This document shows, piece after piece, positions 2,588 through 51,786 of a DNA stretch of 64,000 nucleotides. Every line of letters begins with the position of its first letter. Positions within the stretch are counted from its first letter, which is position 1. The notes below the pieces were generated by a model. It was given only the letters and a program-made list of their open reading frames with translations. It searched no databases and had not been told where the DNA came from. Source of the stretch: a virus; the IMG/VR virus record IMGVR_UViG_3300029953_000001; one strand, written 5' to 3'. The translations under genes were made by a program, and so were the position numbers.

Positions 2588-3685
2588 CTATGACTGCATC
2601 GACTGGAGAGCTTTCAGATAAGCTAACCCCGAACTTTTCGCAGTCATGGTGGGATTTCCTCTGTTGATAAATACGTCGGCTGGGGATTCGTCTGGGACAA
2701 ACCGGTCGTGGCTGGGGGAGTTGATAATTCCAGTGTTGTTGGAAATTTTCCCTCTGTAGTCCTCTGCCACGCTAATAGCCTTAGCCGGGATGTCCCGCAG
2801 GTAAGCAACCTGACCCGTCAAGTGCAAACTGACCGGCCATTCGCAGTACGCCCAGCTACTGTCGTCAAAGGCGTCACCAAATATAGTTTGAAGCTGAGCC
2901 TTCTCCTCATCCGGCAATTCATCGAACATAACCGGGAAGTCTGCATCGTCAGGGCGGAGGTCAGCCTTGTTCAGAAACTTGGTTGCGATTGCCAACGTGA
3001 CCTTGCCTGATTCTCTCTCGCCAGCTTCGTAGTGGTCGGGGTAGTTTCCGGTCATGTGCTTGTCGATAGCCAAGTAGACTGCACCACCGTCCCATTCGTT
3101 ATGGGACGAGGACTTGTCTGTCATCAGACCGTTGGCGAGGATGTCTTGCACCTTGGCCCCTACTGTACCGTGATAGAGATACGCTGGCAGCGTGTACCGC
3201 TTGTCAGCCGCAGTCTTCGGTGCGGGGTTCTCACCCTCGTTTTCTACCTGATTTTTTTCAATGGCATCGAAGGCGTAGTCGAAGGGGACTTCGAAGACCT
3301 CACCTACTCGGGAATCTTCCCAGTCATCGGGGTAGTGGGCTAGGTACATCTCAAAAGCAGAGTCCATGTCAGGGAACCCTAAAAGACACTTGTACTCGTC
3401 AAATTCCCCCTCGTCATCTAGCTGCTCCACGACGTACACATGGTCGGACTCCGTGTCCGGTCCTATGTAAACGTCAAGACCCTCGCCATCCCCAGCGGCC
3501 CTAGTTTCAGGTACAAACCCGTAATCACAAAGCATGGTTCTCTTCCATCCCTTGCCGTTATTATCCTTACCGGTGCGTACACTACCTTTCGGCCACTCAA
3601 GTACGATAGGTATTCCTCGGAATTCAGATGAGTGCATCTGAGGGAGTTTCTCGGCTCTGCGGAGGAATTTGGACTTGAAATTCAT
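2588..3685 (-). CDS. Two-domain protein: N-terminal family-I inorganic pyrophosphatase-like domain fused to C-terminal Tpt1/KptA-like (ADP-ribosyltransferase fold) domain
   Basis: N-term GIPIVLEWPKGS...MLCDYGFVPETRAAGDGEGLDVYIG matches PPase signature (xIEIPkgs..; NYGFIPqT; DGDPLDVlV). C-term YLYHGTVGAKVQDILANGL...GGAVYLAIDKH resembles KptA C-lobe FLYHGTASRFLDEIKKQGL...RHYVHLSAD (H-G-T...Y of ART fold). Confidence 0.55.
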   Translation of the reverse strand: MNFKSKFLRRAEKLPQMHSSEFRGIPIVLEWPKGSVRTGKDNNGKGWKRTMLCDYGFVPETRAAGDGEGLDVYIGPDTESDHVYVVEQLDDEGEFDEYKCLLGFPDMDSAFEMYLAHYPDDWEDSRVGEVFEVPFDYAFDAIEKNQVENEGENPAPKTAADKRYTLPAYLYHGTVGAKVQDILANGLMTDKSSSHNEWDGGAVYLAIDKHMTGNYPDHYEAGERESGKVTLAIATKFLNKADLRPDDADFPVMFDELPDEEKAQLQTIFGDAFDDSSWAYCEWPVSLHLTGQVAYLRDIPAKAISVAEDYRGKISNNTGIINSPSHDRFVPDESPADVFINRGNPTMTAKSSGLAYLKALQSMQS

Positions 3686-3810
3686 AAATGCCCTTGGTTA
3701 AAACAGAGTTAGGTGTGTCTCTACATTGGATTTCAGAGTCGAGAAATTGAAAACCTTCGTATTATCAGTCAATGGGTTCAGTGTATGAGTCCAGCCACAA
3801 AGAGTGAACT

Positions 3811-5208
3811 ATGAAGTTCACTAATGACGCGCACCGCGTAGTTACTTATATGCGCCATGTACGCGCACACGATGTTTGGAGGAAGACGCGATTGGCAACT
3901 AAAAAGAAAGACTCAAAGAAGCCCACAACGCCAGCCGATGCTGAGCCTAAACTTACTCAGAACCAGAGAGCTATGCTCTCGGAGCGTGGTAAGAAGTACG
4001 ACCCTGATGCAACCAAGGAAGACTGCATCAACGACCTGCGCGGTGTCCAGAAGGCAAACCCGGATAACTTCATCAGCCGTAACTTCTATCGGGTGACCGG
4101 TCGTTATTCTGAGAAAACTTGGAACCGGTACTTTGGTACCATGGAGGAGTTTCGTTCAGAAGCTGGCCTCCAGCTAAGCCGCAGTCAGCGACACCTTGAG
4201 AAGCACATCGCGAAGCACGCCTCCTTGGATGAGGCTCGTAAGTTCTACCGGGAGGAGATTGAGCCGTGGGTCGAAAAGTTCCCCAAGGCCAATCAAGCCA
4301 AACCGGGAATGAAGAAGATGGTTATCGCTTCGGACTTCCACGACATTGATGTAGACTTGTTCGTCCTCTCGGTCTTCCTTGACACTTGTCGAGTCGAGCA
4401 GCCGGACATCATTGTTCTGAACGGTGACATCTTCGACCTGTACGAGTTCTCCCACTTCGACCGTGACCCCCGTAAAATCAACATGAAGCTCCGTATGGAC
4501 TTTGTGCGTGAGAACATTTTCGCCCCCTTACGTAAGTATTGTCCCAACGCTCAGATTGACCTTATCATCGGAAACCACGAGCTTCGCATCCTGAAGCACA
4601 TGGCCTCCCGTACGGAGAACATGGCGGCGTTGATGGACTTCATGGGTCTGGACTTGGCGGCTCTGTTCGGCTTGCCCAAGTACGAAATCAACCTTGTCTC
4701 CAAAGGAAATACGGCAGCGTATCAGACCAAGGAAATCAAGGAAGAGATGGCGAAGAACTTCAAGCTGTACTTTAACTGCTTGGTTTGCAACCATACTGGT
4801 TACGAGAGCTTTGGCGTGACTACGGTAAGCGGACACACTCACCGGGCGGAGTTGACTTCGGAAGTTCATCTCATCCAAGGTCCCATCAACAAGTTGACCA
4901 CCGGCTGCATGTGCAAGCTGGATGCCGACTATACCAGCACCAAGACCAACTGGCAGAACTCCTTCTGCATCGCCTACATTGACCCCTTCGCAGAGAAGGT
5001 TCAGTTGAATCACGCGATGTTCACGGAGCCGTTCATCAACGTCAACGGTAGGTATTACTACCGCGATTATGAGAGCACGGAGCTTCGTGACTTGCAGTCT
5101 GCTGTTGACCGTATCAAGGAGCAAGAGATTCGCGGCTTCGTTCACAAGGATGAGGGCACCGCAATCGTCGCCGGTCTGAGTAAAGCAAAACGGGCCGGGG
5201 CTATATAG
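3811..5208 (+). CDS. Calcineurin-like metallophosphoesterase (phosphoesterase/nuclease) with basic N-terminal extension
   Basis: All metallophosphoesterase motifs present in order: VIASDFHD (DxH), LNGDIFD (GDxxD), IIGNHE (GNHE), VSGHTHR (GHxH). Confidence 0.85.
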   Translation: MKFTNDAHRVVTYMRHVRAHDVWRKTRLATKKKDSKKPTTPADAEPKLTQNQRAMLSERGKKYDPDATKEDCINDLRGVQKANPDNFISRNFYRVTGRYSEKTWNRYFGTMEEFRSEAGLQLSRSQRHLEKHIAKHASLDEARKFYREEIEPWVEKFPKANQAKPGMKKMVIASDFHDIDVDLFVLSVFLDTCRVEQPDIIVLNGDIFDLYEFSHFDRDPRKINMKLRMDFVRENIFAPLRKYCPNAQIDLIIGNHELRILKHMASRTENMAALMDFMGLDLAALFGLPKYEINLVSKGNTAAYQTKEIKEEMAKNFKLYFNCLVCNHTGYESFGVTTVSGHTHRAELTSEVHLIQGPINKLTTGCMCKLDADYTSTKTNWQNSFCIAYIDPFAEKVQLNHAMFTEPFINVNGRYYYRDYESTELRDLQSAVDRIKEQEIRGFVHKDEGTAIVAGLSKAKRAGAI

Positions 5209-6594: not shown

Positions 6595-6725
6595 GATGCC
6601 TCCTGACGAGCTTCAGCGATGTCCTTCTTGTTCTTACGGCGAATTTTCTTCCAGAATTTCTTCCGGCCTTTGGGACGAAGATGCTTCGCCCAGTCCACTG
6701 CGATTCCATACTTCGGGGTAGCCAT
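6591..6725 (-). CDS. Small highly basic protein (44 aa, MATPKYGIAVDWAKHLRPKGRKKFWKKIRRKNKKDIAEARQEAS) not in ORF track (<60 aa)
   Basis: ATG preceded by GGAGGA RBS (minus-sense GGAGGACATCATGGCT); stop overlaps next gene start by GTGA; fills the gap between 6232..6594 and 6735..7412. Confidence 0.45.
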   Translation of the reverse strand: MATPKYGIAVDWAKHLRPKGRKKFWKKIRRKNKKDIAEARQEAS

Positions 6726-6734
6726 GATGTCCTC

Positions 6735-7412
6735 CTAATCCCACAACGAATGAAAATTTTTGATAAACAACTCTGCACCCTCTTCAAAAATCTTCTGGTC
6801 ACGGGCTTCGAGAACGGGGAGGGCTGCGGTGCGGTTGTTCTTTACCTTGAGCCAAGCATCAGCGGATACGCCAGAGGGACGGTCAAGCGGGTACTCGCCG
6901 AGTTCTTCCTCGTAGAGACCCTCCTGAAGACGCTTGTTAGCCTCGAACCCGGCAATCATCTTGTCCATGATGATGTTCCAGCGGGTCTCGCCAGCCTTCA
7001 TACCAGCCTCAGAGGGGTTGCCGTGCTCGTCCATGTCCTCAGGCTCAAACATACCCATGGGGACGCCGTGCTTGTCCTTCTTGAGCTTGCGGAGGGCGTC
7101 AGGAAGCCAGCTATTGAGATAGGAATCTAAGCTCCAAACATCCCGGTCTGCCCACCCCCTCCGACCACGCTGGACGAATGCCCGAATGTCGTGGTAAATG
7201 TTGCGGGGGTCGCCGTAGCCATAGTGGAAAAAACGCCAGACAGCATAGTAGGCGTCCACCAGCTTAGAGCGGCGGTTGAAGTCTTCAGAGTTGAAGAGTT
7301 GGAAGTCCCAGAATGGGATGAGTTCGCGGATGTTGGTGTAGTTATCCTTGGTATCCTTACGGATACGCAGAAAGACCAGCACCTTGTGCAGAATGGTGTT
7401 GAGCATAGACAT
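6735..7412 (-). CDS. Hypothetical protein (225 aa)
   Basis: Long ORF with GGAGGA RBS upstream of ATG (minus-sense AGGAGGATTCCAATTCATG); no recognised motif. Confidence 0.55.
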   Translation of the reverse strand: MSMLNTILHKVLVFLRIRKDTKDNYTNIRELIPFWDFQLFNSEDFNRRSKLVDAYYAVWRFFHYGYGDPRNIYHDIRAFVQRGRRGWADRDVWSLDSYLNSWLPDALRKLKKDKHGVPMGMFEPEDMDEHGNPSEAGMKAGETRWNIIMDKMIAGFEANKRLQEGLYEEELGEYPLDRPSGVSADAWLKVKNNRTAALPVLEARDQKIFEEGAELFIKNFHSLWD

Positions 7413-7475
7413 GAATTGGAATCCTCCTTATGGTTTCCTAATGCACTGTCATATGGTCAACCCTCCTTGTGCCAG

Positions 7476-7495
7476 TTGTGTGGCTGGTTTAGTAT
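7476..7495 (+). promoter_or_regulatory. Sigma-70-like promoter-like element (TTGTGTGG-N9-TAGTAT) on plus strand inside ORF-free region
   Basis: Near-identical architecture to TTGTGTGG-N9-TATAAT at 24016..24038; followed within 3 nt by start of 18-bp inverted repeat. Confidence 0.3.
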
Positions 7496-7497
7496 AC

Positions 7498-7621
7498 GGC
7501 TGCAAGAAGTGCCCGTTATCCCCCGGCCTTACTGCCAGTAATCATCCGGGTAGTCAGTTCTCCCACACGCTGTGCAGTCGCTGGGGTTACACCCTAGATA
7601 CTCCGGGCACTTCTTGCAGCC
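7498..7621 (+). ncRNA. Candidate structured non-coding RNA: 18-bp perfect inverted repeat (GGCTGCAAGAAGTGCCCG ... CGGGCACTTCTTGCAGCC) closing an ~88-nt loop; downstream end undefined
   Basis: Seen in sequence: 7498..7515 is the exact reverse complement of 7604..7621; lies in 620-bp region without ORFs >60 aa, directly downstream of promoter-like element. Confidence 0.2.
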
Positions 7622-8035
7622 GGTGGCACCCAAAGACCAACACGTTTACACCGTGCTTAGGATACCCTTATTGAGGGCGTCCGGGCTTACTCAGGACTTA
7701 CGCTCACCGTCTACCTATAATACCCGAAGTTGGAAAAGTTGTATACATCAAAAATGAGGGCGGACAGAGGGGAGGTAAGTCCCACATCCATCCGCCCCCT
7801 GTGAAGGTTTGGGCTAAAATCCTCACTGATAATTTGCAACCCAGTGAGAGCGGCTGACCCGCGTTGGAACTTAATCCTGTGGGGTACAGCACCTTCGTGT
7901 TTCAAGGCAACCCAATTGTTGCCAATCAGTGGCTGTTGTGAGTTTACTTAGTTCCTCCTCACAATTGGCTGGTTCCACCTGACCAACGGTAGCCCAACAC
8001 CACATAAGCCACGAGTTCTATTCGTCGGTTGAAAT

Positions 8036-8953
8036 TCAAACTGATGGTTGGTGATGCTTCGGGGGCTTTAGGGGTGAAGGTTCCGGCTTGTGGCGCTTCT
8101 TCCACTCATCGACCAGCTTCCGCATCATCTCCGGCTTGTTCATACAGTAGTAATACCGATAACTGAGTTTGTTGTTGATAGTGGGGTCATCCTGCCCTTC
8201 CCACCGCCTGTCCTTCCAGCTTACCTGCCGCTTCACGCCGTCACTACCAATCATGGGATGCCAGACATGCAGCACAGATGTCGGGAGCGTCTTGTGAGGC
8301 CAGTACAGCGTGTCCATAGCCCTCATAGCAGCGTGATCTTCGCCACCCCATCCTCTGAAGGACTCATCCCAACCACCTACAAGCTCAAAAGCTTCGCGAG
8401 GAACGATATGAATCATCGCTCCATAGTGGTGACCCGTGCGAGGGTTGGTATCATTGATAGTTAGGCTCAGGTCAGGGGGTTCCCCCAATGGGTACGGGTT
8501 GGCAGGGCTACTGGCAAGAAGCCGTTCGCTGGCTTCCTCATTTAGACGATAGAACTGACGGTAGGGCACAAACCACAGACGACGGTCTCGCTCACGAGCA
8601 TGACGAATCTCATTGACGCAGTGCATCACATGGTCAATGGCGATAAAACCATCGGCGTCCACGATAACAAGCACATCTCCGGTAGACCGGGACACCGCAT
8701 CATTGATAGCCACGGACTTGCTGAAGGCTCTATGCGTTTCAGGGTCGTCTCCGAGTATCACCTCTGCTCCGGGAAGTTGAACCTCCCAATATTGCTTGAG
8801 CCACAGGACATTCCGTAGCCGTTCTTTAGCCTTCTCTGATGGACGAAAGGGAATGATGATACTGACCCCTTCCCCCTTCTTCTCGCGGCGGAACAAACCT
8901 AAACCCAACATAATCAGCATCGCTCCTAGAATAGTCAATATTGTTATTGTCAT
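8036..8953 (-). CDS. Membrane-anchored family-2 glycosyltransferase (GT-A fold)
   Basis: N-terminal TM helix (TITILTILGAMLIMLGLGLF), then IIIPFRPSE...VLVIVDADGF (DxD) and conserved C-terminal GWDE..F.GWGGED motif typical of GT2. Confidence 0.75.
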   Translation of the reverse strand: MTITILTILGAMLIMLGLGLFRREKKGEGVSIIIPFRPSEKAKERLRNVLWLKQYWEVQLPGAEVILGDDPETHRAFSKSVAINDAVSRSTGDVLVIVDADGFIAIDHVMHCVNEIRHARERDRRLWFVPYRQFYRLNEEASERLLASSPANPYPLGEPPDLSLTINDTNPRTGHHYGAMIHIVPREAFELVGGWDESFRGWGGEDHAAMRAMDTLYWPHKTLPTSVLHVWHPMIGSDGVKRQVSWKDRRWEGQDDPTINNKLSYRYYYCMNKPEMMRKLVDEWKKRHKPEPSPLKPPKHHQPSV

Positions 8954-24007: not shown

Positions 24008-24038
24008 GTTGCAATTTGTGTGGAGTCTCTGGTATAAT
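24008..24038 (+). promoter_or_regulatory. Sigma-70-like promoter TTGCAA-N19-TATAAT (contains TTGTGTGG-N9-TATAAT) upstream of lone plus-strand gene
   Basis: Seen in sequence in divergent intergenic region between terL start and 24148 ORF. Confidence 0.4.
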
Positions 24039-24147
24039 TGGAGGATGCGGCTCGACTAGAATTTGCCAAAAAGAAGTAAGGCCACTAACCGCTCATGGCG
24101 GGGTCTGAACGGGAGCCTCAATTCTATGTCGGGCACTTGAGGGAGGG

Positions 24148-24390
24148 GTGATGGGTGGTATTGCCCCTCCCACTCACCTTTTTGGAGGAACTATGGCGAA
24201 GAGAGTATGGCAATGCGATTCATGCAAGAAGGCGAATGAACAGGAACCATGGGAGTGCCCCGGATGTGGGAACGAAACGTGTGACTCCTGCTTCGACCGT
24301 TATGCTCATTGCAGAGCGTGCTCTATGAACAAGCGTGATGAGGACTTACGGCTGGCAGCTAACGCTGCTGGGTACGACTTCGAAGCCTAA
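24148..24390 (+). CDS. Cys-rich zinc-ribbon protein (likely start MAKRVWQCDSCKK at ~24193)
   Basis: Four C-x2-C pairs (CDSC, CPGC, CDSC, CRAC); only plus-strand gene in a long minus-strand block. Confidence 0.5.
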   Translation: MMGGIAPPTHLFGGTMAKRVWQCDSCKKANEQEPWECPGCGNETCDSCFDRYAHCRACSMNKRDEDLRLAANAAGYDFEA

Positions 24391-51665: not shown

Positions 51666-51736
51666 GCTTTTTCACCTACTGTAGGTTTAGAAAATATTTA
51701 CCCGTGACATGGTTGACAATCAAATAAATGAACATA

Positions 51737-51767
51737 CGAATAACCCTCTAGTATAGAGGGTTATTCG
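51737..51767. promoter_or_regulatory. 31-nt perfect palindrome CGAATAACCCTCTA-GTA-TAGAGGGTTATTCG (recurring CCTCTA..TAGAGG motif)
   Basis: Seen in sequence in intergenic region. Confidence 0.5.
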
Positions 51768-51786
51768 TAGTTGACATTTCGACTGG

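Follow-up and report, generated by a model that had tools for sequence, protein, structure and literature searches.

Positions 7413–8035 of the window, by which we mean the whole analysed stretch of 64,000 nucleotides (nt) of viral DNA (IMG/VR record IMGVR_UViG_3300029953_000001), probably represent an intergenic control region of a peat or soil jumbo phage, which is read from the minus strand and contains a modular, cis-acting messenger RNA (mRNA) leader rather than an antisense small RNA. The region is flanked by two minus-strand genes, coding for a family-2 glycosyltransferase (8036–8953) and a protein of 225 amino acids (aa; 6735–7412). Following the minus strand from 8035 to 7413, the end of the glycosyltransferase gene is succeeded by the relic of an older gene, by a terminator which would stop the upstream transcript, and by a promoter which would start a new one at about position 7712. 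The new transcript would carry a structured 5' leader of about 300 nt ahead of the 225-aa gene, and this leader would be composed of three modules: a conserved hairpin-type motif right at the start of the transcript (consisting of a stem P1 and a variable apex, with a bulged A and a UAAG bulge in between), an optional hairpin of 126 nt containing a 19-bp inverted repeat, and a translation-control device made up of a Shine-Dalgarno sequence (SD1), an upstream open reading frame (ORF) of four codons and a hairpin hiding a second Shine-Dalgarno sequence (SD2). The layout of these elements, the strand to which they belong, their conservation and their covariation are evident from the comparison with related loci, and the parts are of known kinds except for one undescribed conserved RNA motif. 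The region shows how an "empty" gap of a jumbo phage is built, namely as a replacement scar with the tail and terminator of the old gene, followed by a promoter and by a leader composed of modules which come and go among close relatives.

For the comparison, we used about 40 loci containing homologues of the 225-aa protein (42–77% protein identity; designated by L numbers in the following) and seven identical copies of the locus. The gene order pyruvyl transferase, glycosyltransferase, gap and 225-aa gene is kept in L001, L003, L005, L161, L162 and L163, and the gap lengths across the relatives vary (146, 302, 350, 559, 623 and 1043 nt). According to the source annotations, the gap at 7413–8035 is the largest one of the window, as had been claimed in the original prediction made from the sequence of this stretch, and the next largest gaps in our own ORF map measure 438 and 420 nt. 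The source gene callers, which had been applied to seven identical or near-identical public contigs, annotated no genes in the gap. The accompanying claim that it is free of ORFs holds insofar as the gap contains no credible gene, but about 190 nt of it are a decayed gene fragment.

This fragment was recognized by comparison with L013, L165, L166 and L167, which contain an intact gene for a protein of about 366 aa without a Pfam match upstream of the 225-aa homologue (the protein from L013 is 68–75% identical to its counterparts in L165, L166 and L167). The last 85 or so codons of this gene align at the nucleotide level with positions 8013–7821 on the minus strand of the window and also with the corresponding segments of L161 and L163. 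Conserved blocks of this alignment, GGGCTACCG, GAACC..CCAA.TGTGAGGAG and GAAGGTGCTG, differ in reading frame among the window, L163, L161 and L013, and in the window as well as in L161 and L163 they are separated by insertions and deletions (indels) of lengths not divisible by three. Because of these frame differences and non-triplet indels, the segment is recognized as a decayed, frameshifted remnant of the 3' end of the gene. To judge from the alignments, it was left behind when the pair of pyruvyl transferase and glycosyltransferase genes replaced the older gene. The relic contains a hairpin (CUCACUG/CAGUGAG, 7848–7822). A 44-aa ORF at 8005–7871 and other ORFs within 8035–7800 were considered as genes and assigned to the relic, because the conserved blocks lie in three frames among the relatives.

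The relic is followed at 7799–7749 on the minus strand by a predicted intrinsic (Rho-independent) terminator, consisting of the stem GGGGGCGGAUGG...CUGUCCGCCCUC and the subsequent sequence AUUUUUG (free energy of −30.4 kcal/mol, six U within 10 nt past the stem). A GC-rich stem reported here by the original prediction as part of a plus-strand RNA is indeed present (GGGCGGA at 7758–7764 and TCCGCCC at 7791–7797), but the stem at 7757–7799 is continued by a U-rich tail on the minus strand only, and by its sequence it is the stem of this minus-strand terminator, the activity of which is predicted. At the same place, eleven relatives contain a GC stem of different sequence with a U run, and the opposite strand is never U-tailed; the design with covarying stems is found in twelve lineages, directly upstream of the promoter. 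A simple terminator scan missed the element because its loop and stem are beyond the limits of the scan. The arrangement resembles a Rho-independent terminator and promoter at an operon boundary in its GC stem, in the U run on the coding strand, in the −10 box that follows within about 10 nt and in its retention in relatives. It differs by a conserved sub-hairpin (GGAUGYGGGA...CCC) in the upper stem of the closest relatives and by an upstream promoter element, TTTTC.GACTT, that is too near to the −10 box for a standard −35 region.

The putative leader promoter extends over 7745–7714 on the minus strand and consists of the −10 box TATTAT (7722–7717), the element TTTTCCAACTT upstream of it and TATACA (7745–7740) as a generic −35-like hexamer. 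A generic promoter scan detected it as TATACA-17-TATTAT at 7745–7717. The relatives share an element TTTTC.GACTT...GGTATTAT directly past the terminator, the orthologous position being conserved. Using a position matrix built from 13 relatives with the window left out, we obtained the best match in both strands of the window at 7741–7714 of the minus strand (18.1 bits), whereas the next best non-overlapping site scored 12.5 bits, and shuffled sequences gave about three matches above 12. By these matches, the segment 7745–7714 is a conserved, predicted promoter of bacterial type, and transcription would start at about 7712–7708, as deduced from the spacing.

The original prediction had instead placed a sigma-70-like promoter on the plus strand at 7476–7495, from which a small or cis-regulatory RNA would be transcribed antisense to the surrounding operons, beginning with the hairpin of the inverted repeat. 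The sequence at this site reads TTGTGTGG-N6-TAGTAT with a total length of 20 nt and not the reported N9 spacing, so its architecture differs from that of the site at 24016–24038 (23 nt, N9) with which it had been equated. Read as hexamers, TTGTGT and TAGTAT are separated by 8 nt, whereas 16–18 nt are required. A consensus promoter scan reported nothing at 7476–7495 of the plus strand, where a TG extended −10 element is also missing, and the element is absent from L161, in which the spacer containing it is only 54% identical and shows indels. The octamer TTGTGTGG occurs three times in the window, compared to 3.1 expected occurrences. On the minus strand, it forms the loop of a small hairpin predicted by folding (CCAG-CCACACAA-CUGG, 7488–7473), which is located in the spacer between the 126-nt hairpin and the device of SD1 and upstream ORF and is likewise not conserved in L161.

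The first leader module, a conserved RNA motif, is present in the window in its long form at 7714–7616 of the minus strand. It consists of stem P1 (AGACGGUG/CACCGGCU), a bulged A, the pairing GCG/UGC, a UAAG bulge, stem P2 (UCC/GGG) and an apical extension. The outer stem of the core begins within a few nt of the predicted 5' end of the transcript. The apex is variable and consists either of a plain loop or of two added hairpins; the window contains the two-hairpin form with P3 at 7682–7660 and P4 at about 7655–7641. In the stretch of about 95 nt directly past the −10 box, L013 matches the window with about 93% identity, compared to only 64% identity of the adjacent proteins, and the substitutions within the motif include a compensatory change from CACG/CGUG to CGCG/CGCG. 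Shorter versions of the core are present in L034, L036, L065, L066, L161 and L163, and long versions were found in L063 and L064, upstream of a short ORF and a gene for a GH108-type muramidase. In an alignment of nine sequences, 88% of the cells in paired columns can pair and four pairs are changed on both sides, whereas sliding the partners by 1–3 columns reduced the pairing to 41–54%. Two of the pairs are invariant G-U pairs which would read as C-A mismatches on the plus strand, and the motif is therefore assigned to the minus strand. A covariance model of the motif (R1), with which the collected loci were scanned, located a single copy in the window with a score of 63 bits, recovered an instance in L166 that had not been used for training (41 bits, E-value 1e-11) and detected a decayed instance in L167. 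Stem P3 is 100% paired and shows three compensatory pairs in L166 (GCCC/GGGU changed to GGGG/UCCU).

Within the searches made, the motif is rare and confined to this phage group. A genome-wide pattern scan for a wider distribution yielded 94 matches, which is about the number expected by chance; one of them was RNase P and the others were mostly located in coding sequences. Their scores with the covariance model were at most 33 bits, which is what the pre-selected core alone gives. Two further pattern scans of IMG/VR returned just chance matches beyond L063–L066, and a literature search for the core sequence led to unrelated primers only. An apparent second copy in the window, GCCGTAAGTCC at 24342–24352, turned out to be a chance match within a small plus-strand gene. 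An Rfam scan, which had been proposed as a check in the original prediction, gave no match at the gathering thresholds in the window or in 24 related loci, and no family reached its threshold for the motif. The motif is of wider value because it is conserved in both sequence and structure at the predicted extreme 5' end of phage mRNAs and is listed by none of the RNA family databases.

The one motif to which it bears a weak resemblance, DUF3800-III (RF02962), is itself an orphan of no known function. This family was the top Rfam match for each of the three long forms examined, with alignments spanning the full model, and the only sub-threshold match that recurred, with scores of 14.5 bits for the window, 13.6 bits for L166 and 17.0 bits for L064 as compared to a gathering threshold of 43.8 bits; the short form of L036 gave no match to it. 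The alignments show a shared architecture and shared strings, yet they also contain non-canonical pairs and a 15-nt deletion of a conserved junction. DUF3800-III is an orphan motif of the Rfam database (RF02962) described by Weinberg et al. 2017 (PMC5737381), who defined eleven DUF3800-associated motifs and state that no function is known for them. In the same order as in DUF3800-III, the phage long form shows an outer stem followed by a bulge of 1 nt, then a short stem, the UAAGU bulge, a stem of the type CC.../...GG, another stem of 3 bp and finally a two-hairpin junction; the strings cgUAAguCC, cccNGGNcgccc and GGGug are likewise shared. In contrast, the conserved junction segment GacAGAcUGAAAUCG of DUF3800-III is missing from the phage motif, which is located at the predicted 5' end of phage mRNAs directly past a promoter and has no DUF3800 gene nearby. 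A DUF3800 domain was detected by Pfam in none of ten neighbouring proteins, nor at E-values up to 10 in the four downstream ones, and a crude scan for the N-terminal motif DE[STAG]G in all window ORFs of at least 120 aa was negative as well. We mention as a speculative and rather unlikely proposal that the UAAG-bulge motif may constitute a new class of phage cis-regulatory RNA and a distant kin of DUF3800-III, which would sense a protein or a small molecule and act via the 19-bp hairpin, with which P1 shares five nt, and via the leader ORF and the sequestered SD2, thereby timing the expression of a conserved jumbo-phage gene. If this were true, an orphan RNA family would gain its first functional context, namely the 5' end of a transcript past a promoter, ahead of phage genes including an endolysin-like gene in L064.

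An additional conserved block was observed in L161 (2040–2120) and L163 (2280–2355), where it is located behind a −10-like box of its own between the terminator and the promoter of the motif. It consists of TTCAACTyGTCAGCA, a GC hairpin and then GAGAGTTGTCCGGCAT..GGGCTGACTGAACCGG, contains pseudoknot-like complementarities (GTCAGC/GCTGAC and CAACT/AGTTG) and is absent from the window. The block had no match in Rfam and may represent a second undescribed RNA motif.

The second leader module is a rod-like hairpin of 126 nt (7622–7497, minus strand), which is closed by a perfect inverted repeat. The repeat had been reported with a length of 18 bp; it is real and perfect, but its arms comprise 19 nt each (7497–7515 and 7604–7622, 100% complementary) and are 88 nt apart. 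It is the sole long spaced inverted repeat in the 64 kb and far exceeds what chance would produce; no match to the 19-mer was obtained in shuffled versions of the window with up to three mismatches. The hairpin starts at the end of the motif, and its outer five nt (CGGCU, 7622–7618) double as the 3' strand of P1. As to the presence of the repeat in related genomes, which the original prediction had itself named as a test, we found a homologue only in L161 (77% protein identity), and the hairpin is absent from L162, L163, L013, L166, L167 and the farther relatives examined. At 92.9%, the identity between the hairpins of the window and L161 exceeds that of the 225-aa genes (81%), of the glycosyltransferase genes (72.7%) and of the spacer past the hairpin (54%). 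The stem of L161 retains 16 of the 19 pairs, three substitutions between the two hairpins stay paired via G-U on the minus strand only, and a two-sequence consensus fold amounts to −56.7 kcal/mol on the minus strand versus −47.5 kcal/mol on the plus strand. As judged from these identities, the hairpin is an optional leader module which is restricted to this lineage and is under purifying selection where it is present. At the same position of the leader, L166 (about 1806–1850) and L167 (about 1225–1265) contain another hairpin with covarying stems (GACCGGG/CCCGGTC versus TACCGGGG/CCCCGGTA) and the conserved loop TTyGAGTCGyGAGGACAG, and the leader of L013 contains yet another one.

These data also bear on the proposed plus-strand RNA. 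As single sequences, the hairpins of both strands fold equally well (−68.3 vs. −68.4 kcal/mol), and the whole gap is more stably folded than shuffled sequences with z-scores of −4.65 for the plus strand and −3.63 for the minus strand. The gap is thus structured as claimed, but because both strands fold better than their shuffles, folding energy alone cannot choose between them. The G-U pairs in the motif and in the hairpin of L161 fit the minus strand only, a scan found no plus-strand terminator past the hairpin, and every conserved signal, including all features that could be tested in relatives, is located on the minus strand. We therefore regard a plus-strand transcript from a promoter at 7476–7495 as barely credible. 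What remains of the original prediction is that a conserved structured non-coding RNA is present and that the repeat forms a conserved hairpin, whereas neither the plus strand nor the promoter nor an independent antisense RNA is supported; the reading as a small antisense RNA that has a sigma-70 promoter of its own fails and should not be carried forward.

Within the minus-strand leader, the most likely role of the hairpin would be in the processing or stability of the leader RNA. Because no U run follows it on either strand, it is not a terminator. Its 19 perfect pairs and the further pairs inside the rod provide the approximately two turns of near-perfect double-stranded RNA that characterize RNase III substrates. 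Long double-stranded RNA in the leader of a phage mRNA suggests an element setting the processing or stability of the leader, which may serve either as a substrate of an RNase III-type enzyme or as a protective or insulating stem. Well-known cases of phage processing hairpins and 5' stabiliser stem-loops are the RNase III sites in the early region of T7, the lambda N leader and the 5' stem-loop of ompA. Like these, the hairpin forms a long, near-perfect double-stranded stem that lies between cistrons in the leader of a phage mRNA, and the stem P1 of the motif begins at the predicted 5' end of the transcript, as in stabiliser stem-loops. The sites of T7 have characteristic internal loops, and the likeness proposed here relates to the double-stranded stem, not to those loops.

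The overlap of the first two modules would also allow a different function. The hairpin and P1 may exchange pairs through the five shared nt, and the motif could be a riboswitch-type sensor of a ligand or protein, with the 19-bp hairpin as expression platform which competes with P1 for CGGCU (7622–7618) and passes the state of the motif downstream. This would fit to the retention of the overlap between the 3' strand of P1 and the hairpin arm in L161, to the position of the motif in a 5' untranslated region, to its strongly conserved unpaired nucleotides and multi-helix long form, and to the 94% conservation of the hairpin interior. However, the motif occurs without the hairpin in L163, L034, L036, L065, L066, L013 and L166, none of which contains a conserved competing sequence. 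Moreover, the hairpin keeps 14 bp even if P1 is formed, so the overlap need not switch anything, and neither a terminator nor the sequestration of a Shine-Dalgarno sequence is tied to it. A switching role through the 5-nt overlap is possible, but it lacks support in the relatives, and we consider the complete sensor and platform arrangement quite unlikely.

A function of the repeat at the level of DNA was also considered: its arms could delimit a miniature mobile element as terminal inverted repeats, or it could be a site for protein binding or recombination that was left at a cassette-exchange junction. Perfect 19-bp arms enclosing about 90 bp are in accordance with such an element, as are its presence in only two lineages and the location at a demonstrable gene-replacement site with large indels among relatives (gaps of 146–1043 nt). 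Yet the repeat is present as a single copy in the window, a 24-mer from its interior was unmatched in 2.9 million viral contigs of IMG/VR, and the 19-mer matched just two unrelated coding sequences, each as a single arm. There is no target-site duplication, and the outer five nt of one arm are part of the conserved motif and not of an insert. Iterons, direct repeats or a GC-skew feature were not found here either. A multi-copy mobile element and a replication origin were discarded on these grounds, and we regard a DNA-level element of any kind as very unlikely.

Finally, the hairpin region might encode a protein, namely a Cys-rich mini-protein of 34 aa at 7633–7529 of the minus strand (MGATGCKKCPEYLGCNPSDCTACGRTDYPDDYWQ). 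Its CxxC...CxxC pattern and its well-conserved interior sequence would be compatible with a gene, and small zinc-ribbon genes are common in the intergenic regions of these phages (e.g., at 24193–24390 of the window and as a CPKC...CDRC ORF in L001). But the ORF starts with TTG without a Shine-Dalgarno sequence, and a 1-nt deletion in L161 shifts its frame, with the first Cys being replaced by Phe. It was called by no annotator, and no homologue was found in 50,697 phage records (best E-value 4). We rejected it as a gene because of the frameshift in L161, the missing Shine-Dalgarno sequence and the lack of homologues, and consider a coding function of the hairpin highly improbable. Plus-strand ORFs spanning the hairpin are broken by the same indel of L161.

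The third module of the proposed leader directly precedes the 225-aa gene. It starts with SD1 (AAGGAGGG, 7468–7461, minus strand), which is common in the relatives and, at a distance of 8 nt, is well placed to drive the four-codon upstream ORF AUG ACA GUG CAU UAG (7452–7438). At the last base of the stop codon of this ORF begins a hairpin, GGAAACC-AUAAGGA-GGAUUCC (7438–7418), which contains SD2 (AAGGAGGA, 7429–7422) in its loop and 3' arm, and the main AUG follows at 7412–7410. Nearly all leaders of the relatives contain a strong Shine-Dalgarno sequence, an ORF of 3–7 codons usually ending with CAU UAG, then the SD2 hairpin and the main AUG. Plain alignment with MAFFT and RNAalifold left the stems out of register, which was solved by alignment with a covariance model (R2) that comprised 16 leaders plus one chance match elsewhere in the window. 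In this alignment, 89% of the cells of the SD2 hairpin pair and three pairs change on both sides (11 cells), whereas controls with slid partners were only 17–53% paired. The covariation score was 0.328 versus 0.094 after shuffling, and none of 500 shuffles reached it.

Because the upstream stop codon abuts the hairpin, a ribosome terminating on the upstream ORF would cover and melt the SD2 hairpin and thus allow initiation at the main AUG. The simplest reading of this arrangement is that the 225-aa gene is translationally coupled to the tiny upstream ORF, a mechanism which we infer from the sequence. Control by leader peptides with a sequestered second Shine-Dalgarno sequence is well known from the attenuation of ermC, cat and cmlA, and the melting of a hairpin can couple translation. 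The phage leader resembles these systems in the order of SD1, a very short ORF and a hairpin hiding the Shine-Dalgarno sequence of the main gene, the arms of which covary here. It differs in the length of the ORF, which has only 3–7 codons, and in the stop codon abutting the hairpin; normal termination would therefore suffice to open the SD2 hairpin, with no need for drug-induced stalling. The device is of wider value, since it covaries strongly and extends across a whole protein family of uncultivated jumbo phages from peat and soil. In the leaders of L001–L006, L033–L036, L041 and L042, the start region of the upstream ORF was observed to be complementary to the main start region (e.g., CAUGACAG...CUGUCAUG). 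Both AUG codons of these more distant relatives thereby take part in a single larger stem that encloses the Shine-Dalgarno hairpin; the outer pairing in the window amounts to only about 4 bp.

Several observations weigh against the proposed modular leader. The minimum-free-energy fold of the full leader, calculated from the single sequence, does not form P1. The hairpin has a single homologue, in L161, which leaves the covariation thin with only three informative substitutions, and the higher conservation of its interior relative to its stem is left unexplained by a plain role as a stable stem. Furthermore, with no U run past the hairpin and no conserved alternative pairing, a switching mechanism finds no support. 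The close relative L162 (74% protein identity) contains neither the promoter nor the motif, the hairpin or the upstream ORF and has retained only SD2. A close relative can therefore do without the entire module when the gene is read through from upstream. Lastly, the start of transcription, the activity of the terminator and the strand that is expressed are predicted from sequence features.

The window was recognized as phage DNA by its PHROG matches. Its sole match to a phage in GenBank is the 309-kb Tunturiibacter phage Tunturi_5, and this match is limited to the glycosyltransferase, which belongs to Pfam family Glyco_tranf_2_2 and phrog_1721. Homologues of the 225-aa gene (phrog_11543) are located on contigs of 330–460 kb from IMG/VR and metagenomes of peat and soil samples. 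The 225-aa protein showed no sequence match in Pfam or the Protein Data Bank (PDB), and its AlphaFold model, which is helical with a predicted local distance difference test (pLDDT) score of 77, had no significant structural neighbour in the PDB. Without recognizable relatives in sequence or fold, the protein gives no clue to the regulatory logic of its leader. A scan for transfer RNAs and transfer-messenger RNAs found none.

Directly 3' of the 225-aa gene, a basic 44-aa ORF (MATPKYGIAVDWAKHLRPKGRKKFWKKIRRKNKKDIAEARQEAS) is present at 6725–6591 of the minus strand. Because it was called by every source annotation and ORFs of 42–47 aa were called at the same place in L161, L162, L165 and L166, it is probably a real small gene. 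In L162, just 146 nt (2355–2500) separate the glycosyltransferase and 225-aa genes, and a 20-nt block in this gap (TTGGCTGGTTCCACCTGAC) is inverted relative to the window. More distant relatives contain small ORFs between the upstream gene and the terminator, namely the zinc-ribbon ORF with the pattern CPKC...CDRC in L001 (about 3644–3840) and an ORF for a hydrophobic protein of about 50 aa in L003 and L006. Past the small ORFs and just before the terminator follows the conserved block CATAC..GGCTTCGG..CAGGTGGGCT.AGACCCGG..CCGAAGC.

Two further intergenic regions of the window contain features of their own. Another large "gap" at 24016–24390 (plus strand) holds a Cys-rich zinc-ribbon ORF of 65 aa at 24193–24390 (MAKRVWQCDSCKK...CPGCGNETCDSC...CRAC), which has its own Shine-Dalgarno sequence, lies some 155 nt past the promoter-like site TGGTATAAT (24016–24038) and overlaps the stop codon of a convergent minus-strand gene by 4 nt. 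Moreover, another intergenic gap contains at 51735–51769 a palindrome whose perfect 16-bp arms (TACGAATAACCCTCTA / TAGAGGGTTATTCGTA) are separated by a spacer of 3 nt.

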